Origin: an uncultured cyanobacterium | GTDB lineage: Bacteria > Cyanobacteriota > Cyanobacteriia > Cyanobacteriales > Nostocaceae | Length of the DNA: 64,000 nt | Assembly (NCBI GenBank): GCA_963706595.1 | Contig: OY970166.1 | Location: forward strand, 2,176,001-2,240,000 | Direction: 5' to 3' | Part shown: positions 25,120-33,513 of the stretch, one piece after another | Layout: every line of letters begins with the position of its first letter | Position numbering within the stretch: position 1 is the first letter of the stretch | The notes under the pieces: model-generated | Database searches by the model: none | Told to the model about the DNA's origin: nothing | The model's input: only the letters and a program-made list of their open reading frames with translations | Position numbers and translations under genes: made by a program

Positions 25120-25216
25120 AAAATTTGTGAATTTTATAGTATTAATAATTACGAGTCATATTATACCATAAAACATGGTATTGTGTAAAATTACTAGTCA
25201 AGTTGTCAGAATTTAT

Positions 25217-25666
25217 ATGGAGAACAGCCAAGTGTTTAGAGTCAATAGTCCTCAAGTTGTCTGTGAAACTATTGATGGAGAAGTGGTAGTTGTCGATCTT
25301 GAGCGGGGTTACTATTACAGTCTGCTAAAAACTGGCGCAGATTTGTGGAGTTGTATCGAGCGTCATCTTCAGCGCGATGACATAATCCAAGAAATTGGAC
25401 AAAAGTATGATGGGACTATCGCAGAGATTACTGAGGCGATTGATGAGTTTCTTGACAAATTGCAACATGAGGGATTAATTGTGGCTGATGCCACTATTAC
25501 ACCTGGGGCTATTAATGAGCAAGAATCAGTTACCAGTAGCGAAAAGCCCAAATTTGAGAAACCGATACTAGAGAAGTTTACAGATATGGAAGATTTGCTG
25601 CTGCTCGATCCGATTCATGAGGTGGATGTAGAAGCTGGATGGCCAAATGTGAAGACGGTTTCATAG
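25217..25666 (+). CDS. PqqD family / RiPP recognition element protein with C-terminal leader-like extension
   Basis: IDGEVVVVDLERGYYYSL..TGADLW...FLDKLQHEGLI RRE pattern; tail FEKPILEKFTDMEDLLLLDPIHEVDVEAGWP. Start 25217 (or 25175). Confidence 0.88.
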   Translation: MENSQVFRVNSPQVVCETIDGEVVVVDLERGYYYSLLKTGADLWSCIERHLQRDDIIQEIGQKYDGTIAEITEAIDEFLDKLQHEGLIVADATITPGAINEQESVTSSEKPKFEKPILEKFTDMEDLLLLDPIHEVDVEAGWPNVKTVS

Positions 25667-25690: not shown

Positions 25691-26737
25691 ATGAGTTTAA
25701 ACTGGAGCGATGGCGTAGCCGCCCGCCAAGGGCTTCGCCTGGCTTACTTTGATAGTTATCGATTAAAATTGTCCCACAAACAATTACTCAAAGCCACACT
25801 GTTAAAAGAGCAGGCAATGTTAACGGCTTGGCAAGATTGGCGAGATTCAGTTGATATAGAAACTTTAGATGCTAGTTCCTATTCATTGTTGCCACAACTT
25901 TACCAAAACTTATTAGCTCATAAAGTTGATGACGCTGATATGGCAAGGCTAAAGGGGATCTATCGTCGCCATTGGTATGCTAATCAATTGCAACTCAAAT
26001 CGCTGACAGCAATATTGTCTAGTTTAAAGGATATTGGCATTGAGGCGATTGTGCTGGGAGATGCCGCTTGGGGTGGGATAGGTAAAAATCAAATTGAGAA
26101 TTACCGCCCAATTTATAGCTTCCATCTCTTGCTTGATGGCAATTATTTAGAGACAGCAATCGAGCATTTGCTCTCGCTAAATTGGCATAGTGTTGATGGT
26201 AGTACCCAACAATTTAGGGAATTACGCCACAATTGTGATTCATCGCTGAATTTACGGCTTTATTTGCAAGGACATCTGTTTTGGGCAATTCCCCAAGACT
26301 ATACAGATGGGCAGGTGTGGCATTATGCAACTGCGGATTGGAGCCATGAAGCTGGTTGGCGGCTGAGTGCAACGGATCAGTTCCTGGATGGATGCGCGCG
26401 AATGTTTTTTAGACGACTAACGCCTAAATCATCGAATCCACAGATACACAGGATTGCAGATGCTTTGGTGTTAATTGCGAATCTCCCAAACAACGATTGG
26501 ATCAGGTTGATCACACAAGCACAGCGATATCAAATGATCTTGCCTGTGCGGAATATGTTGCAGCTTTTGCAGCAGTTATTTTCAGTAGAATTACCAACGT
26601 GGGTATTACCGGCTCTCTGGCAAATGCCGATCGCCAATACGGAGTGGCTAAAATATCGAGTTTTAGATGGCGATCGCCGTTCTCTGATGCGTTCAACCAT
26701 TGTGCAATCGCTACAACTGTTGACTCTTTCAAAGTAA
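25691..26737 (+). CDS. Nucleotidyltransferase family protein (NTP_transf_5-like), degenerate active site
   Basis: LLPQLYQNL...RLKGIYRRHWYAN family N-terminus; the expected LKG and RxxxDxDLL motifs read LGD and RPIYSFHLL. Confidence 0.75.
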   Translation: MSLNWSDGVAARQGLRLAYFDSYRLKLSHKQLLKATLLKEQAMLTAWQDWRDSVDIETLDASSYSLLPQLYQNLLAHKVDDADMARLKGIYRRHWYANQLQLKSLTAILSSLKDIGIEAIVLGDAAWGGIGKNQIENYRPIYSFHLLLDGNYLETAIEHLLSLNWHSVDGSTQQFRELRHNCDSSLNLRLYLQGHLFWAIPQDYTDGQVWHYATADWSHEAGWRLSATDQFLDGCARMFFRRLTPKSSNPQIHRIADALVLIANLPNNDWIRLITQAQRYQMILPVRNMLQLLQQLFSVELPTWVLPALWQMPIANTEWLKYRVLDGDRRSLMRSTIVQSLQLLTLSK

Positions 26738-26758: not shown

Positions 26759-27865
26759 GTGATTTTTATGTATCCTAACCCTGATCTGAGTATTGCTCAG
26801 AGCGATCGCCTTGCTTATTTCCAACTGGTATATACAGGCTTTGAAAGAGCTGCTCAGATTGCCAGTGAGGTACAGTATTATTATGCAATTGGTAAGTATA
26901 AGATATGTCTGAGGTTTGCAGGGGAAGGGTTAATTCCCCAGATTACCCCTGCATTGTCTCATCTCTCTATAGCCCCAGTTCCCCAGCCTGATCTAACTAT
27001 TTGCCTATGGGATAATACCTCAACTAAAACACAATTGCCATTATTAATTGATAGTCTATTAACTCTGATTCGACTGCATTGGACAGATTATCTCGGTCCA
27101 CGCAAAGAGATCAAAGCCTATGATGGCGATCGCATTCGCAGCAATTTTCATATTGGTCCCAACATTCTCAGCGTACTAGATCGAGAGCAAAATTTAGCTT
27201 GTTATTGGATTGACAATGCTGAAGATATTCCTTATTGGGAAAAAGGTTCACCCCTGCAAACCATCTTAAATTGGTGGACAAGCGATCATCGCCAACATCA
27301 ATATGTTCACGCAGGTGCGATCGGTAATCCTGATGGGGGTGTTTTGTTAGCGGGAAAAGGCGGATCTGGCAAATCTTCCACTGCGCTTACCTGTATCAAT
27401 AGTTCGCTGCTCTATGCCAGTGATGATTATTGTTTAGTCACCAGTGATCCTCAACCCTATGTTTATAGCCTCTACAACACCGCCAAATTAAAAGGACAAG
27501 CGGATCTAGAACGATTTCCCCATTTAGCGGATCTCGTTGATAATTGCGATCGCTTAGAGAATGAAAAAGCAATGCTATTTTTGCATCAACATCATCCTCA
27601 AAAAGTCGTACAAGGATTTCCCATCAAAGCGGTGCTAGTGCCTCAAATCACAGGGAAACTAGATACCCATATCCGTCCTATGAGTGCAGGAGCAGCCTTG
27701 CGCGCCCTAGCCCCTAGTACCATCTTTCAATTAGCTGGTAGTGGACAAACAGCATTACAAATCATGTCAAGTTTGGTCAAACAGGTTCCTTGCTATGTTT
27801 TGGAACTTGGCACAGATATGGTACAAATTCCCGATGTAATTCAACGTCTGCTATCGCAAATATAA
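26759..27865 (+). CDS. HprK-related serine kinase
   Basis: HAGAIG...GVLLAGKGGSGKSS (P-loop) and ASDDYCLV. Confidence 0.88.
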   Translation: MIFMYPNPDLSIAQSDRLAYFQLVYTGFERAAQIASEVQYYYAIGKYKICLRFAGEGLIPQITPALSHLSIAPVPQPDLTICLWDNTSTKTQLPLLIDSLLTLIRLHWTDYLGPRKEIKAYDGDRIRSNFHIGPNILSVLDREQNLACYWIDNAEDIPYWEKGSPLQTILNWWTSDHRQHQYVHAGAIGNPDGGVLLAGKGGSGKSSTALTCINSSLLYASDDYCLVTSDPQPYVYSLYNTAKLKGQADLERFPHLADLVDNCDRLENEKAMLFLHQHHPQKVVQGFPIKAVLVPQITGKLDTHIRPMSAGAALRALAPSTIFQLAGSGQTALQIMSSLVKQVPCYVLELGTDMVQIPDVIQRLLSQI

Positions 27866-27896: not shown

Positions 27897-28314
27897 ATGG
27901 GATATCTCCGGCGAAAAATGATTGAGGGATTAACTCGATTTGTGCCGACAATTCTTCCTCCCCAAAGGCAATACTATAACGAAACCAATAATGATCGATG
28001 GATTTGTGAATATGTCTTTCCCAATAAACGGGATGGTTATTTCTTAGAAGTTGGAGCAGGTGCTGCTCAAAAAATATCATGCTCCTCAAGTGATTGATTA
28101 TGCTGCTTTTGATATTGAGGGCAGTGAGTTGGATGTTTTAGAAGTTTTTCCCTTTGAGCCTTATGTCTTTCTAGCTCTGAGTTTGGAATGTGATGGTTCT
28201 ATCCGTTTACCCATTTCTCAGTTATTAGAATCCAATGGCTATCGACGCGCTAAAAATCCATTTAATCGGGATAAACCTTGGGAAATGTATTGGTTACATC
28301 AGAGTGTTTACTAG
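27897..28314 (+). pseudogene. FkbM-family methyltransferase with internal deletion and frameshift
   Basis: N-part DGYFLEVGAG joins out of frame to C-part APQVIDYAAFDIEGSE; the central region is missing. Confidence 0.8.
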
Positions 28315-28392: not shown

Positions 28393-29085
28393 ATGAATAA
28401 CTTACCTTTAGTAACTGTGATTATCCCTGTCTATAATTACGCTAATTATATAGCCGCAACACTTGACAGTGTATTTGCTCAAACCTATCGCCCAATTGAA
28501 GTCATTGTTGTGGATGATGGTTCAACAGATAACAGTGCGGAAATTGTGCGTGGTTATCCAGAAGTACAGTATTTTTATCAATCAAATCAAGGTGTGTCAG
28601 TTGCTCGCAATGTGGCGATCGCTGCTGCTAAAGGTGAATTTATCGCATTTTTGGATGCAGATGATCTCTGGAAACCTGAGAAACTCAGTCTTCAAATTGC
28701 CTATATGCAGGAAAATCCTGATATTGGGATCACAGGTACAAAATCGATAAATTTTTTAGAATCAGATACTCAACTTCCCCCTTGGCTAAGAGATAAGCCC
28801 CATTGGGAAGAGGTGAGAGAGATCCTTCCCAGCACAATCGTGGTTCACAAATCTGTTTTTAGTCAAATCGGGGTATTCTCTCCTGATTATCGTGCCAGCG
28901 AGGATACAGAATGGCAATGGCGAGCCAAAGATGCAAATATATCCATCTTTAATATCAATGAAATCCTGACATTAAGACGATTTCAGGGTTCTAATCTATC
29001 GTGGGAGATGAAAGTAACTCAGAAATCTCGGATGTTGAGAATTATCAAGGAATCCATCGCTCGTAAATCGACCCAAGCTCGATGA
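28393..29085 (+). CDS. Glycosyltransferase family 2 (tandem copy 1)
   Basis: VIIPVYN, VDDGSTD, FLDADD, SED. Confidence 0.93.
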   Translation: MNNLPLVTVIIPVYNYANYIAATLDSVFAQTYRPIEVIVVDDGSTDNSAEIVRGYPEVQYFYQSNQGVSVARNVAIAAAKGEFIAFLDADDLWKPEKLSLQIAYMQENPDIGITGTKSINFLESDTQLPPWLRDKPHWEEVREILPSTIVVHKSVFSQIGVFSPDYRASEDTEWQWRAKDANISIFNINEILTLRRFQGSNLSWEMKVTQKSRMLRIIKESIARKSTQAR

Positions 29086-29179: not shown

Positions 29180-29872
29180 ATGAATAATTTACCTTTAGTG
29201 ACCGTTGTTATCCCTGTTTATAACTCTGCTAAGTTTTTGGCAGCAGCACTTGACAGTGTATTTGCTCAAACCTATCGCCCAATCGAAGTCATTGTTGTGG
29301 ATGATGGTTCAACAGATAACAGTGCGGAAATTGTGCGTGATTATCCAAAAGTACAGTATTTTTATCAATCAAATCAAGGTGTGTCAGTTGCTCGCAATGT
29401 GGCGATCGCTGCTGCAAAGGGTGAATTTATCGCATTTTTGGATGCAGATGATCTTTGGAAACCTGAGAAACTCAGTCTTCAGATTGCCTATATGCTGGAA
29501 AATCCTGATATTGGGATCACAGGTACAAAGGCGATAAATTTCTTAGAGTCAGATACTCAACTTCCCCCTTGGCTGAGAGATGATCCCAATTGGGAAGAGG
29601 AAAAAGTGATGATTCCTAGCACAATGGTGGTTCACAAATCTGTTTTTAGTCAAGTTGGAGATTTTTCTCCTGATTATCGTGCCAGCCAGGATACAGAATG
29701 GTTATGGCGAGCCAAAGATGCAAAGATCCCCATGTTTAATATCAATGAAATTCTGACATTAAGACGATTTCACGGCTCTAATGTATCATGGCTGATGGCA
29801 GGAACTCACAAATCTCGGATGTTGAGAATTATCAAGGACTCCATCGCTCGTCAATCGCAGCAATCTCGATGA
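29180..29872 (+). CDS. Glycosyltransferase family 2 (tandem copy 2)
   Basis: Close paralog of 28393-29085, same length. Confidence 0.93.
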   Translation: MNNLPLVTVVIPVYNSAKFLAAALDSVFAQTYRPIEVIVVDDGSTDNSAEIVRDYPKVQYFYQSNQGVSVARNVAIAAAKGEFIAFLDADDLWKPEKLSLQIAYMLENPDIGITGTKAINFLESDTQLPPWLRDDPNWEEEKVMIPSTMVVHKSVFSQVGDFSPDYRASQDTEWLWRAKDAKIPMFNINEILTLRRFHGSNVSWLMAGTHKSRMLRIIKDSIARQSQQSR

Positions 29873-29899: not shown

Positions 29900-30207
29900 T
29901 TAAACATCTATGAGCAGATTTTCGGCATTATCTTCAGGTTCGTATCCTAACAGTTTTTGGGCATTGCTGATATCCCAATAGCGGCGCGTGTTGCCAGAAA
30001 CTCCATAAAAAATTTGAAAACCAAGATTGTCATGCTCTAGCGATCGCCTAACTATTTGTGCTAAATCTCTAGGGCTACACCAATTTGATAATATCCGATC
30101 ATTGGGAGCATAAACTTTCGGTTCGGTTTTAAACCAGCCAATCCGCAAACAGATCACCGTCATCCCATAGCGATCGCCAAAATATTGTCCTAAAGCTTCA
30201 CCTAAAA
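29900..30207 (-). pseudogene. C-terminal remnant of NAD-dependent epimerase/dehydratase (uronate dehydrogenase-like)
   Basis: GEALGQYFGDRYGMTVICLRIG...WCSPRDL...YGVSGN...LGYEPED; no Rossmann N-terminus, cut at the stop of the upstream GT2. Confidence 0.82.
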
Positions 30208-30903
30208 TTATTGGTTTAAAGCTCTGTGTTTTGCACGTTCTCGATCTAGCTTGGCTTTGATGATGTGCAGTCTTTGATTGGCATATTGACGTTCTGTAAT
30301 TCCACTATTGCTTTCATGTAGTCGGCGGTGATATACCACATCTGGAATTGTAATTTGTTGCAGTTGATGTTCTATTGCCCAAATATACCAACTTATATCA
30401 ATACCTGTGTTGAGATTGGTGTCAAAGTTGCCCACTCTCAAAAAAGCCGATCGCTTGATCAACATAGCACTAGATATATGCGCCGCAACTGGTTTTTCTG
30501 GACAGCGAATCCTGTTTCTGAAGTTTTCATCTAGTTCTGGGCTATAAAAATTTTGAGCATAGCCAAAGACTGCTTCTATATCTGGGTTAGTATCAAAAGC
30601 CGCCATTTGTTTTGCTAGTTTGTCCTGAACCCAAATATCATCAGAATCGAGAAAGGCGAGAAATTCACCATTAGCTACTGCAATTCCGGCATTTCTAGCA
30701 GCACTGATGCCGCCATTGGTTTGATAGTGATATTTCAGGGGGTAGCTTTGGGCAATTTCGCCACTGCGATCGCTCGATCCATCGTCAATTACAATCAACT
30801 CGATATTGGGATGGGTTTGCTCTAAAACACTTTCAATAGCTTCGGCTAAATAGCGCTCTCGATTATAGCAGGGAATAATAACACTAACTAAAGGTAAATT
30901 CAT
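30208..30903 (-). CDS. Glycosyltransferase family 2
   Basis: VIIPCYN, IDDGS, FLDSDD, RRLHESN. Confidence 0.93.
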   Translation of the reverse strand: MNLPLVSVIIPCYNRERYLAEAIESVLEQTHPNIELIVIDDGSSDRSGEIAQSYPLKYHYQTNGGISAARNAGIAVANGEFLAFLDSDDIWVQDKLAKQMAAFDTNPDIEAVFGYAQNFYSPELDENFRNRIRCPEKPVAAHISSAMLIKRSAFLRVGNFDTNLNTGIDISWYIWAIEHQLQQITIPDVVYHRRLHESNSGITERQYANQRLHIIKAKLDRERAKHRALNQ

Positions 30904-32324
30904 CAGATTGATTTATATACTTCACTATTACAAAAACTATCTAGAAAATAATTTGCTGATAGTTTATCACGAGTTTCGCAGGACTTGAGATATTCATGAG
31001 TTTCTAAAATGAGTGCCGTATCCAATGCTTTTGCTGCGGCTTCTTTTAGAGTATGGAAATACATCGGATAGTCTTCGCCTAGATATTCTTTCACCGCCGG
31101 AATCGGATTAACTAGCAGTGGTGTCGCACGGGCAATACATTCAATGATTGCATTATTTACACCAGAGTCATACAAATTCACAAAGGCGATATTCATCGAG
31201 AGCAGATCATCATAGGCATCGTCGGGAATATGTTCAATAACAGTTGTATTCTCAACATAAGCTGGATCAACTTGAATTTTATAAATCCTCCCTTCAATTT
31301 TCATTAGTTGATCTAATATTTTTTCTGCTGAGTCAAACAAAAAACCTAATCTGACTTTTTCGTAACCAAGACAGTTACCTTTAGCTAGAGGTAATTGATA
31401 AATCGAATGTAACTTCCGCAACCACCAGCCAATCTGCACCACTTTTTTCTGAGGATTGGCGAGAAATTGATTAAAATCAAATTGTTTTTCGGGAATCTCC
31501 GTGGGATGGATTAATACTGAAACTGGTTTGCCTGTTTCTTTCCTCAGCCAATCGCCATAATAGTGAGATAGTGCAAACAATCCCACGCAGTGAGGCAAAC
31601 TATCTTGCCAAATTTGCTTCTCAAATAGTTTTTGGGGCGATCTGTGATAATGGAACCAGATGGGCATCCTGTGGGGGTTGTGCATAAATCCCACCCAAGG
31701 GGTTTTATAAGGTACGATACCCTTTTCTTCTGAGTCCGCTAAACTCTGGAAAACTCCATCAGCCCGCATTTTTGCTAATATCCGGGGCGATCTCCTACCA
31801 AAGTGATGATGTTGAAAAAGAAATTGATTTTCTAGGAAGCCATCAAACAAAACACCTTGGGGATTGTGTAAAGAACTTAGTGCTTGAATTGCAAAATTCC
31901 AACCACTGCGATGAGGAGCAAAAACTCTTTGTTGTCCGAGATTAATTTTTCCTGTGGCTATACCTTGTAGTTTTTCAGTAGAAAAATAAAGATTTTCTGC
32001 TTTTTTATCTGGAATAATTTGTGTGGAATTACTAGGCTTTCGCCAGCCCAAACATTGATAATAAAAAGAAAGATCAGTGGCATCAAAGTCAATAGCTAAA
32101 GCTTGATCATAGTAATCCATCGCTTCTGCTGTCCGTCGTTGCTTGAGCATCAAATTGCCCAATTGTTGATACGCAGGCAAAAAGTCTGGTTGCAGTATTA
32201 AGGTTTCCTGATAGCGAGCGGAGGCATTTTCCAAGTCACCGCGCAATTGCCAAGCATTTCCTAATTTAAATTGGGTTAAAGCTGGGTTGTCTTGGTTATT
32301 GTTTTTGTTTATTTCCAGATTCAT
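30903..32324 (-). CDS. TPR protein with uncharacterised GT-B-like C-terminal domain
   Basis: N-terminal TPRs; NNAIIECIARATPLLVN...EYLG resembles the GT4 nucleotide-binding motif. ATG 32324 preferred. Confidence 0.7.
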   Translation of the reverse strand: MNLEINKNNNQDNPALTQFKLGNAWQLRGDLENASARYQETLILQPDFLPAYQQLGNLMLKQRRTAEAMDYYDQALAIDFDATDLSFYYQCLGWRKPSNSTQIIPDKKAENLYFSTEKLQGIATGKINLGQQRVFAPHRSGWNFAIQALSSLHNPQGVLFDGFLENQFLFQHHHFGRRSPRILAKMRADGVFQSLADSEEKGIVPYKTPWVGFMHNPHRMPIWFHYHRSPQKLFEKQIWQDSLPHCVGLFALSHYYGDWLRKETGKPVSVLIHPTEIPEKQFDFNQFLANPQKKVVQIGWWLRKLHSIYQLPLAKGNCLGYEKVRLGFLFDSAEKILDQLMKIEGRIYKIQVDPAYVENTTVIEHIPDDAYDDLLSMNIAFVNLYDSGVNNAIIECIARATPLLVNPIPAVKEYLGEDYPMYFHTLKEAAAKALDTALILETHEYLKSCETRDKLSANYFLDSFCNSEVYKSI

Positions 32325-33513
32325 AAAGTTTTGGCAATACGTATTCCCATAATACGCGGATGGGACGCACAAAGTAATACAGAAAAAATAATTGCTGAGG
32401 AAGTCTTAAAAATTGGCGATCGCGTTCATTCGGTACACATAATCTCCTGATCAGAAAATACAAATATAATAAACTCATTGAAATTATTTGATCAAGTCCC
32501 CAAGGATTTAATGAACTATCTAGTGTTTTTAATGGTGAGATATATACTAAATGCAGATTGCGGAAAGCCGATATTAGTCTACTTTCATATAATGCTTGGT
32601 GTAAAGTGCTATTTGTCTGAATCTCTAGAGAATTGAACAGTGCAATTTGTGTATCCAGGGATTTAATCTGAATAAATTTTGATCCAATATGATCTGGCAC
32701 AGAAATATTGAAGAGATTTTGAGTTATATAGATTCCCAGTAAAAATAGTTTCTGACACCGCAACTCTGAAGATAGTTGCAAAGTTAAGTGCCAATCTAAA
32801 TCAGGATATGCTTGGATCACTTGGGCAAGATCACAAATTTGTTTAAGCGAGCGCAACCATCCATAATCTTTAGCAATATTAACACTTTGAATAATTAACG
32901 CTATTTCTGGAATGAAACTTTTGATAGATTGACCCATCATTGTCATGGGCTGACAATATTCCCAAAGGCGATCGTAATGGTTCGGGTTCCAAGTCCGTCT
33001 CGGTGGAATACCCCAATGTAAGTCAATACTACGTTTTGGGTTGCTATGCAGCAATGATGGCTCAAATCTGGCGTTAAACATTTCTGCTTCCGGGGCTTTG
33101 TAAGACAGAGAGATTTGCCAATCTCTATCGACTTGATCAAATTCCACCTCTTCTGAGGAATTAGACTGATAGCCTTGACTAATTAAAACTGCCTTTGCTT
33201 GCCAAAAGTCCCGTCGCCGCACCAAAATATCAAGATCATTAAACTGGCGCAAAGACACATTACCATAAGCTGATGCTGCAAGTACTGCTCCCTTAAATGC
33301 GATCGCCTCAATTCCTGACTTTTCTAATTGCGTCAAAATCCTTAACAATTCTTTCGTTTGAGATAAGTTATTCAATCCATTCATGCGATTGAGCGTTTGC
33401 AGTTGCATCATTACCGAGGGCGGTACATCATCAATTTCCTTCAGACTTTGATACAGCAGAGGCATTACACCCTGAGCGATGCTAATTTCTATCAATAAAA
33501 CAGTTAAGATCAT
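32296..33513 (-). CDS. Nucleotidyltransferase family protein (NTP_transf_5-like), intact catalytic motifs, N-terminus frameshifted
   Basis: GVMPLLY, AFKGAVLA, LRQFNDLDILV, IDLHW. Family-like N-terminus (LSAEVIALLACL...DDLN) lies in another frame up to ~33619. Confidence 0.85.
   Translation of the reverse strand: MILTVLLIEISIAQGVMPLLYQSLKEIDDVPPSVMMQLQTLNRMNGLNNLSQTKELLRILTQLEKSGIEAIAFKGAVLAASAYGNVSLRQFNDLDILVRRRDFWQAKAVLISQGYQSNSSEEVEFDQVDRDWQISLSYKAPEAEMFNARFEPSLLHSNPKRSIDLHWGIPPRRTWNPNHYDRLWEYCQPMTMMGQSIKSFIPEIALIIQSVNIAKDYGWLRSLKQICDLAQVIQAYPDLDWHLTLQLSSELRCQKLFLLGIYITQNLFNISVPDHIGSKFIQIKSLDTQIALFNSLEIQTNSTLHQALYESRLISAFRNLHLVYISPLKTLDSSLNPWGLDQIISMSLLYLYFLIRRLCVPNERDRQFLRLPQQLFFLYYFVRPIRVLWEYVLPKLYESGNKQKQ

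Follow-up and report, generated by a model that had tools for sequence, protein, structure and literature searches.

We have analyzed a 64,000-nucleotide stretch of DNA (hereafter the window) from an uncultured cyanobacterium of the family Nostocaceae (GenBank assembly GCA_963706595.1, contig OY970166.1, positions 2,176,001 to 2,240,000 of the forward strand), and specifically one gene in it that encodes a recognition element (RRE) for RiPPs (peptides that are made on the ribosome and modified after translation) followed by a C-terminal tail. Foremost, this revealed that the RRE and a peptide bearing the aromatic-x-x-P-x-L motif of lasso peptide leaders are joined in one protein, that this architecture and the tail sequence are conserved across many phyla, that the gene recurs beside a kinase, PF14907 nucleotidyltransferases, and small family 2 glycosyltransferases (GT2s), and that the aromatic residue of the motif (Phe127) covaries with a residue of the putative leader-binding pocket (Ala88). 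The RRE-tail protein may thus be a self-leadered RRE that presents its own tail to these co-encoded enzymes, a reading whose chances we put at about even.

Overall architecture of the RRE-tail protein

The open reading frame (ORF) at 25175-25666 (+) codes for 163 residues and, just as an earlier note on this DNA had claimed, contains the RRE, a linker, and the tail, its C-terminal peptide being identical to the KPKFEKPILEKFTDMEDLLLLDPIHEVDVEAGWPNVKTVS quoted there. Since 21 of the 24 homologs in our alignment A1 start at the column of M15 (25217) or later, the protein is probably 149 residues long. The gene is single-copy in its own genome, and the protein has 1034 homologs at E ≤ 1e-3, the best 120 of which are mostly 144-163 residues in length.

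A match to the PqqD family (PF05402) extends over residues 36-102 with an E-value of 1.9e-14, which is above the Pfam cut-off. In the AlphaFold2 (AF2) model, built on 117 homologs and having a mean predicted local distance difference test (pLDDT) value of 75, the RRE domain is composed of five strands (20-23, 28-33, 36-41, 46-50, and 102-105) and three helices (53-62, 67-77, and 82-98), with pLDDT values of 87-91 across residues 21-100. The best matches of this model in the protein data bank (PDB), as found with Foldseek, were the lasso B1 RREs TbiB1 (5v1u/5v1v) and TfuB1 (6jx3), all of them leader-bound and with template modeling (TM) scores of 0.87-0.91 on the target. Moreover, a hidden Markov model (HMM) search against PDB sequences picked out TbiB1 (5.6e-16), PbaB1 (9x90_B, 1.5e-13), TfuB1, and LppB (9x8z_B, 3e-3). 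By its predicted fold and its sequence, the RRE domain belongs to the lasso B1 type.

Following the RRE domain is a linker that is rich in S/A/T/E/N/P and has a pLDDT of 55 at residues 111-120 in the AF2 model. Here, the spacing from I102 to F127 amounts to 20-29 residues in 379 of 388 relatives (median 26). The tail begins with K124 at 25544, and the start of 25540 given in the earlier note is therefore 4 bases early. In the AF2 model, a helix is predicted at residues 138-142, and the pLDDT values beyond it are 48-56.

Conservation and spread of the tail

The FEKPIL stretch of the tail fits the leader pattern [Y/W/F]xxPxL, as the earlier note had recognized, and an alignment of homologous tails, the check that was called for there, reveals that both F-x-x-P-x-L and DLLLLDPIHEVD..GWP are near-invariant across 354 tail-bearing relatives. 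The consensus of these 354 tails reads K-x-x-[F>Y>W]-x-x-P-x-L-x-K-[YF]-[TS]-D-M-[EQ]-[DE]-L-L-L-L-D-P-I-H-E-V-D-x(2,3)-G-W-P, in which the aromatic position is F in 331, Y in 17, and W in 4, the proline is kept in 351, and the +5 position of the motif is L in 308 and otherwise I, V, F, or M. In 240 non-redundant sequences, D145, P146, H148, W156, and P157 are kept without exception, D137 and M138 in 239, and K160 in 176. In fact, among 117 cyanobacterial homologs the tail is more strongly conserved than the RRE itself, with F127, M138, L141, L142, D145, P146, I147, H148, E149, W156, and P157 as its invariant columns. By a rough estimate, a short motif of this kind would turn up by chance in a single 45-residue tail in a few percent of cases; as judged from the sequences, the conservation of the motif across phyla and its covariation with the RRE pocket rule chance out.

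The claim that the RRE and the leader-like peptide form one polypeptide also holds well beyond the window. A motif scan with one genome per species found the tail encoded at no fewer than 544 loci (species genomes, at least) in Cyanobacteria, Chloroflexota, Nitrospirota, Desulfobacterota-type lineages, Bacteroidota, Ignavibacteria, Verrucomicrobia, Acidobacteriota, Planctomycetes, Actinobacteria, Abditibacteriota, and others. In the 80 loci that we kept, the tail and the PqqD domain share one ORF in 79, the exception being L051, where the tail lies outside the PqqD ORF and the kinase gene is likewise in pieces. Of 1.84 billion cluster representatives, 3062 matched a profile of the tail alone at E ≤ 1e-3, 1613 of these at E ≤ 1e-10, and the best 150 of the 3062 are proteins of 46-227 residues, nearly all of which have the tail at the C-terminus or close to it. 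Against PDB sequences, the sole match of the tail profile was Tektin-3 at chance level (E = 1), and a search of the ESM Atlas with the tail gave a best score of 0.75 and no lead.

Within the phylum the distribution is patchy, as 19 of 301 genomes in an even sample carry the tail. From the same phylum comes a divergent subfamily (L082-L087) that lacks the motif proline and reads N-F-x-L-x-V-x-E-Y-[NS]-D-A-Q-E-L-L-L-A-D-P-I-H-E-V-K; here, the tails have G-W-[ST]-P, five of the six add a conserved S-I-G-Y-[ST]-K-E-E-T end, and the position of Trp58 in the RRE is Tyr. As for stand-alone tail peptides, a length below 125 residues is seen in 46 of 377 motif-bearing proteins, but we take these to be fragments, given that many retain the end of an RRE helix or linker-like sequence and lie on short contigs. 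One tail-only sequence, P0128 (63 residues, from a 564-base metagenome contig), has a signal-peptide-like N-terminus ahead of K-P-Y-T-A-P-A-V...DPIHEVDEAGWP and, alone among the short forms, is unlike a truncated RRE fusion.

Probable docking of the tail on the RRE

For the linear polyphosphorylated peptide (LPP) system of Bacillota and related complexes, Popov et al. (2026, PMC13381572) describe how the aromatic residue of the leader sits in a pocket of the RRE. There, D70 of LppB hydrogen-bonds the leader tyrosine, a Tyr-Asp bond is likewise found in an actinobacterial complex, and Q79 together with E75 of PbaB1 hydrogen-bonds the leader tryptophan. To map this pocket, the chain sequences printed by HMMER were matched to the residues in the paper, with an offset of 18 that was consistent at every residue compared. 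Residue 88 of the window protein aligns with LppB D70, PbaB1 Q79, and an aspartate of TbiB1.

More conspicuously, residue 88 is Ala, Ser, or Gly where the tail has Phe127, and Asp or Glu where it has Tyr127. In a first count, an acidic residue 88 accompanied 8 of 10 Tyr tails versus 9 of 293 Phe tails, and after relatives of the Tyr-bearing lineages were added, 41 of 48 versus 12 of 337. Because related sequences are not independent, three corrections were applied to these counts, two of them being a cluster-level and a nearest-neighbor test that are weaker substitutes for the strict phylogenetic test (taken up below). With single-linkage groups at 50% identity, Asp/Glu88 is present in 6 of 7 Tyr groups versus 5 of 39 Phe groups (p 3e-4). 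When 13 Tyr groups were each compared with their nearest Phe neighbor, nine differed in the expected direction, one in the reverse, and three were unchanged (sign test, p 0.02), with one of the 13 pairs being 74% identical. The covariation between residues 127 and 88 is a new observation, and at the level of sequence it supports a leader-like docking of the tail.

By mutual information with average product correction (MI-APC), the pair A88-F127 ranks 18 of 12,403. In the top 20 RRE-tail pairs by mutual information (MI), eight of the nine that involve tail residues 124-129 fall on RRE residues 72-91, these being the pocket-1 helices, and four of the six that involve tail residues 133-139 fall on RRE residues 44-51, which is the strand extended by leaders; these zones were picked after the published geometry was known, and so they are supportive rather than decisive. 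The AF2 model has a strand at tail residues 132-135 (pLDDT 78-80), and its other strands are all within residues 20-105. Taken together, the covariation, the zoned MI pairs, the conserved linker length, and this predicted strand make a leader-like docking of F127-x-x-P130-x-L132 in the RRE cleft, in cis or between copies, the best reading of sequences and model, and they lend substance to the leader-like binding that the earlier note had proposed. A three-chain prediction (RRE 15-112, kinase, and tail 113-163) scored 0.75 versus 0.61 with an unrelated protein as the kinase, and we count it neither for nor against binding.

Gene neighborhood in the window and in related loci

Features of the RRE-tail gene and of the genes that follow it are compiled in Table 1.

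Table 1. Coordinates of the RRE-tail gene, its parts, and neighboring genes in the window.
Feature	Position	Strand	Basis or remark
RRE-tail protein gene	25217..25666	+	ORF opens 25175; likely start M15 at 25217; stop TAG 25664-25666
RRE / PqqD-like winged-helix domain	25232..25489	+	Residues about 20-105; Pfam, AF2, Foldseek, HMM versus PDB
Flexible linker, residues 106-123	25490..25543	+	Sequence free, length conserved
Putative leader-like docking motif K124-x-x-F127-x-x-P130-x-L132-x-K134-F135	25544..25579	+	Conservation, covariation, MI, AF2 strand
Near-invariant distal segment T136-D-M-E-D-L-L-L-L-D145-P-I-H148-E-V-D-(V)-E-A-G-W156-P157	25580..25645	+	Conservation
Variable C-terminal end N158-V-K-T-V-S163	25646..25663	+	Median 7 residues after GWP in relatives
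PF14907 (NTP_transf_5) nucleotidyltransferase-like, copy 1	25691..26737	+	Pfam E 3.2e-8, 33.9 bits versus cut-off 31.2
HprK-like P-loop kinase	26759..27865	+	Sub-threshold TIGR04352 (3.9e-8), Hpr_kinase_C (7.8e-4)
FkbM-type methyltransferase remnants	27897..28314	+	Two overlapping ORFs in different frames (66 and 87 residues); weak Methyltransf_21 match on second
Tandem GT2 glycosyltransferases	28393-29085 and 29180-29872	+	Pfam Glycos_transf_2, about 1e-37 each
Third small GT2 glycosyltransferase	30208..30903	-	Pfam Glycos_transf_2, 6.8e-37
Tetratricopeptide repeat (TPR) protein	30903..32372	-	TPR matches only at residues 23-100
PF14907 nucleotidyltransferase-like, copy 2	32296..33513	-	Pfam NTP_transf_5, 6.2e-53

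Across the 80 related loci, an HprK-like kinase is encoded in 69 and relatives of PF14907 in 53 (56 by clustering), while clustering also gave small GT2s in 72, family 4 glycosyltransferases (GT4s) in 23, an MsbA-like ATP-binding cassette (ABC) exporter in 23, and a short-chain dehydrogenase/reductase (SDR) in 10. These related cassettes sit in polysaccharide loci with GT2s, GT4s, sulfotransferases, and a flippase or ABC-2 transporters. In three Nitrospirota-type genomes the kinase and a GT2 are fused into one protein of about 600 residues (L072:9386-11191, L076:9236-11071, and L078:5291-7093), a hint of both enzymes working together. Curated NCBIfam cut-offs were reached by none of the cassette proteins scanned.

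A Pfam scan of 116 neighbor proteins from 14 loci of different phyla returned no cyclase, B2 protease, or signal peptidase, and no peptidase family was found in 20 further neighbor-family representatives and fusion proteins. Moreover, when the small ORFs of the 80 loci were searched all-versus-all, no conserved candidate precursor emerged, the hits being only fragments of known genes and antisense shadows, and no other gene in these loci stood out as a conserved candidate acceptor. The neighbors are, in other words, a cassette common to many phyla that lacks a cyclase, protease, or separate precursor; by analogy, they belong to the types of enzyme by which ribosomal peptides become phosphorylated and glycosylated in the paeninodin-type, pseudomycoidin, and LPP clusters. 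In one Bacteroidota locus, the tailed PqqD-kinase pair has directly upstream of it a tail-less PqqD (125 residues), a GT2, and another HprK-like gene (L025:3309-5558).

In the window itself, family scans took in 32 ORFs between 4.0 and 45.1 kb, to which all of our window-wide negatives refer. The region is a polysaccharide locus with GT2s, a GT4, a sulfotransferase, and a flippase-like protein, and neither a lasso cyclase (Asn-synthase-like C), a B2 cysteine protease, nor a signal-peptidase-like protein was found among the scanned ORFs; the same holds for the families PqqA, PqqB, PqqC, and PqqE of PQQ biosynthesis. In the kinase, the residues of the GxGKS loop and of the Asp pair are well kept, with G202, G204, K205, S206, and D222 invariant and D223 near-invariant in 55 relatives, and its AF2 model (pLDDT 94) matches the folds of phosphoenolpyruvate (PEP) carboxykinases and HPr kinase/phosphatase. 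The two PF14907 copies share 19% identity (53 of 285 aligned residues). The tandem GT2s are recent duplicates, with 195 of 230 residues identical in the proteins and 624 of 693 bases in the genes.

As to the remaining neighbors, an intact FkbM gene of 245 residues follows the kinase in locus L001 (8422-9156), in a position equivalent to that of the remnants in the window. An unassigned ORF of 87 residues at 29900-30163 (-) separates the tandem GT2 pair from the convergent GT2 gene. The C-terminal part (about 380 residues) of the TPR protein at 30903-32372 (-) has no Pfam or NCBIfam match, and related loci have, at comparable places, TPRs joined to a sulfotransferase, GT2, or GT4 domain.

Comparison with known systems

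Among described systems, the LPP cluster of Bacillota (Popov et al., Nat Commun 2026) comes closest, and ours differs from it in that the precursor is here fused to the RRE. As described there (PMC13381572), an LPP cluster encodes the precursor LppA, the kinase LppK, the RRE LppB, a leader peptidase LppS that is signal-peptidase-like (SpI-like, of archaeal type), the MsbA-like pump LppD, and the nucleoside triphosphate (NTP) transferase LppN; such clusters are embedded in capsule loci and are described as restricted to Bacillota. The LPP precursor has an N-terminal YxxPxVLxHQxIxFETxxS followed by a variable C-terminus, and LppK places several phosphates on Ser3 of the core, while an S3T variant is not phosphorylated.

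On the side of resemblance, both systems have a lasso-type RRE, though here it is tail-bearing rather than discrete, and an HprK-like kinase, which here is recognized by its P-loop GxGKS, Asp pair, and PEP carboxykinase/HprK fold, the family models being sub-threshold only. Both also have an uncharacterized NTP transferase (two PF14907 genes in the window), and an MsbA-like exporter is shared by 23 of the 80 relatives, albeit not among the scanned window ORFs. A macrolactam cyclase is absent from both, the setting is a polysaccharide locus, and the recognized peptide has an aromatic-x-x-P-x-[L/V] motif. In contrast, the motif-bearing peptide is here fused to the C-terminus of the RRE, with no separate precursor found in the related loci, and no SpI-like leader peptidase was detected among the 32 window ORFs, the 116 neighbor proteins, or the 20 further representatives and fusions. 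After the motif, our tails have a near-invariant K[YF][TS]DMxDLLLLDPIHEVD..GWP, as opposed to VLxHQxIxFETxxS and variable C-termini in LPP. Whereas LPP has Tyr with a Tyr-binding Asp, the aromatic is here mostly Phe with Ala, Ser, or Gly at 88; moreover, the cassette includes two or three small GT2s, and it occurs in many phyla rather than in Bacillota only.

With the lasso B1 complexes (TbiB1-TbiA 5V1U/5V1V, TfuB1 6JX3, and PbaB1 9X90), which are the best matches of our RRE, the leader motif is the same, and the pocket position (Asp or Gln there, residue 88 here) likewise tracks the identity of the aromatic. In lasso systems, however, a separate leader is handed to the B2 protease and the C cyclase, neither of which was found among the window ORFs or neighbor proteins scanned. 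A pairing of a PqqD-family protein with an HprK-related kinase is also known from the NCBIfam HPr-rel-A system (TIGR04352 HprK_rel_A and TIGR04353 PqqD_rel_X), but the window kinase scores 32.7 bits against a TIGR04352 cut-off of 200, and the PqqD protein has no TIGR04353 match at E ≤ 0.01.

Finally, the paeninodin and pseudomycoidin systems (PadeK, PsmK, and PsmN) resemble ours in having an HprK-like kinase and a PF14907-type NTP transferase. In pseudomycoidin, as described by Zyubko et al. (Chem Sci 2019, PMC6993621), the C-terminal Ser receives one to three phosphates from PsmK, and the attachment of hexoses to the phosphate requires PsmN. The window protein, too, has Ser as its last residue, as the earlier note had pointed out, and given that kinases of the PadeK/PsmK type phosphorylate a C-terminal Ser, this residue might be the acceptor here. 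The idea of a conserved terminal acceptor does not hold for the family, as Ser is last in about 5% of relatives (21 of 354 in one set and 19 of 387 in another), and beyond GWP neither length nor sequence is constant; this end contains Ser or Thr in 278 of 387. The Ser modified in those systems is that of a lasso precursor, whereas lasso machinery is missing from the ORFs scanned here. We regard a paeninodin-type phosphorylation of the C-terminal Ser as highly improbable.

Proposed mechanism and alternatives

In the mechanism that we propose, the RRE-tail protein would be a self-leadered RRE, that is, a peptide-binding domain of lasso B1 type tethered via a 20-29-residue linker to its own leader-like motif. 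F127-x-x-P130-x-L132 would occupy the leader cleft of the RRE as separate leaders do in lasso and LPP pathways, presumably in cis rather than between copies, and this docking would fix the start of the tail and display T136...DPIHEVD..GWP to the HprK-like kinase, the PF14907 nucleotidyltransferases, and the small GT2s. The displayed segment may then be the element on which the co-encoded enzymes act, and the product would be a protein tail decorated with phosphate and sugar. This would amount to an LPP-like pathway that does without a leader peptidase, its precursor and RRE being a single polypeptide.

Several points weigh against such a mechanism. As concerns docking, the third correction of the 127-88 counts, made on a FastTree tree, requires 13 changes for the Tyr state but leaves only three independent pairs on supported branches, which are too few for significance; moreover, that the tail lies in the cleft is something we infer. 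As concerns the acceptor, the aligned tails contain no conserved Ser, and a run of about 22 near-invariant residues would be expected of a motif for protein-protein docking rather than of a RiPP core. The sole conserved hydroxyl of the tail is that of T136, a position with Thr in 308 of 388 relatives and Ser in 57 of them, a preference for Thr that contrasts with the failure of LppK to phosphorylate the S3T variant. The rare replacements at this position (D 7, N 5, E 5, G 2, K 2, A 1, R 1), notably D, N, E, and G, suit helix-capping no less than an acceptor. Because T136 precedes the predicted helix 138-142 by two residues and these replacements are classic helix-capping ones, it may be structural; given this and the Thr preference, we rejected it as a firm acceptor. 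In addition, AF2 confidence for the distal tail is low (pLDDT 48-56), and no MsbA-like or other ABC exporter was found among the 32 scanned window ORFs.

The register of the tail offers a further comparison with LPP. Counted from the published motif and numbering, D145 lies at +18 from the anchoring aromatic, which is the register of the polyphosphorylated Ser3 of LppA, and so the kinase may here meet a carboxylate or a product mimic rather than a hydroxyl. Going further, the RRE-tail protein might be a self-presenting acceptor for a phosphate-linked glycan that is then exported, with the kinase adding the phosphate, PF14907 the first sugar, and the GT2s the extension; this more specific version we offer tentatively, and consider it rather doubtful.

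Alternatively, the protein could serve as a scaffold or adaptor only, in which the motif docks on the RRE and the distal segment is a handle that recruits or activates the kinase, nucleotidyltransferase, or GT2s, the acceptor being a glycan, a lipid-linked sugar, or a protein encoded elsewhere. The near-invariant segment with its amphipathic helix DMxDLLLL, disordered in the monomer model, is typical of a motif that folds on binding, and the lack of a conserved Ser acceptor, the embedding of the cassette in polysaccharide loci, and a kinase surface that is itself strongly conserved would all agree with this. Nevertheless, a scaffold gives no reason for a peptide-binding RRE that is permanently filled by its own leader, characterized homologous kinases phosphorylate RRE-recognized peptides, and the 80 loci offered no other conserved acceptor candidate. 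On balance, we think a pure scaffold possible but unlikely.

A tail docked on its own RRE could also be an autoinhibitory leader mimic, the alternative named in the earlier note, which blocks the cleft until it is displaced by a separate precursor that is encoded elsewhere or is too variable to detect. A tail bound in cis would be a competitor of any leader provided in trans, the motif [Y/W]xxPx[L/V] is shared by LPP and lasso precursors, and locus L025 has a tail-less PqqD protein and its own HprK-like gene beside the tailed one. However, the 80 loci contain no conserved small ORF, the RRE-tail gene is the only copy in its genome and has no lasso genes among the scanned window ORFs, and neither the invariance of the distal segment nor the conservation of the linker length would find an explanation. 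Autoinhibition thus appears improbable to us, and the self-leadered RRE remains our preferred reading.

Significance

Literature searches by motif string and by topic, covering main articles, found no description of the tail motif or of a natural RRE-leader fusion. In a term search, neither of the two RRE-Finder papers was found to mention kinases or nucleotidyltransferases, and the fusions reported there are to enzyme domains rather than to leader peptides; according to the more recent one, 21% of PF05402 proteins are larger than a discrete RRE without having a second Pfam domain. Genome mining for RiPPs presumes a precursor gene that is separate from the RRE and lies beside it, and on this assumption the "orphan" PqqD-kinase-glycosyltransferase loci look substrate-less.

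If the tail is a built-in leader and acceptor, these loci (3062 cluster representatives and at least 544 species genomes) would constitute a large and unexplored class. Here, the 127-88 covariation supplies a concrete and testable contact. Such a system would extend LPP chemistry beyond Bacillota and tie it to envelope polysaccharide loci, and, should the glycan-acceptor version hold, it would represent a class of ribosomally made proteins with post-translational decoration, pan-bacterial and free of leader peptidases, at these loci. Leader-in-cis activation is so far known as a protein engineers' trick, and of this the RRE-tail protein, if our reading is true, would be a natural example.

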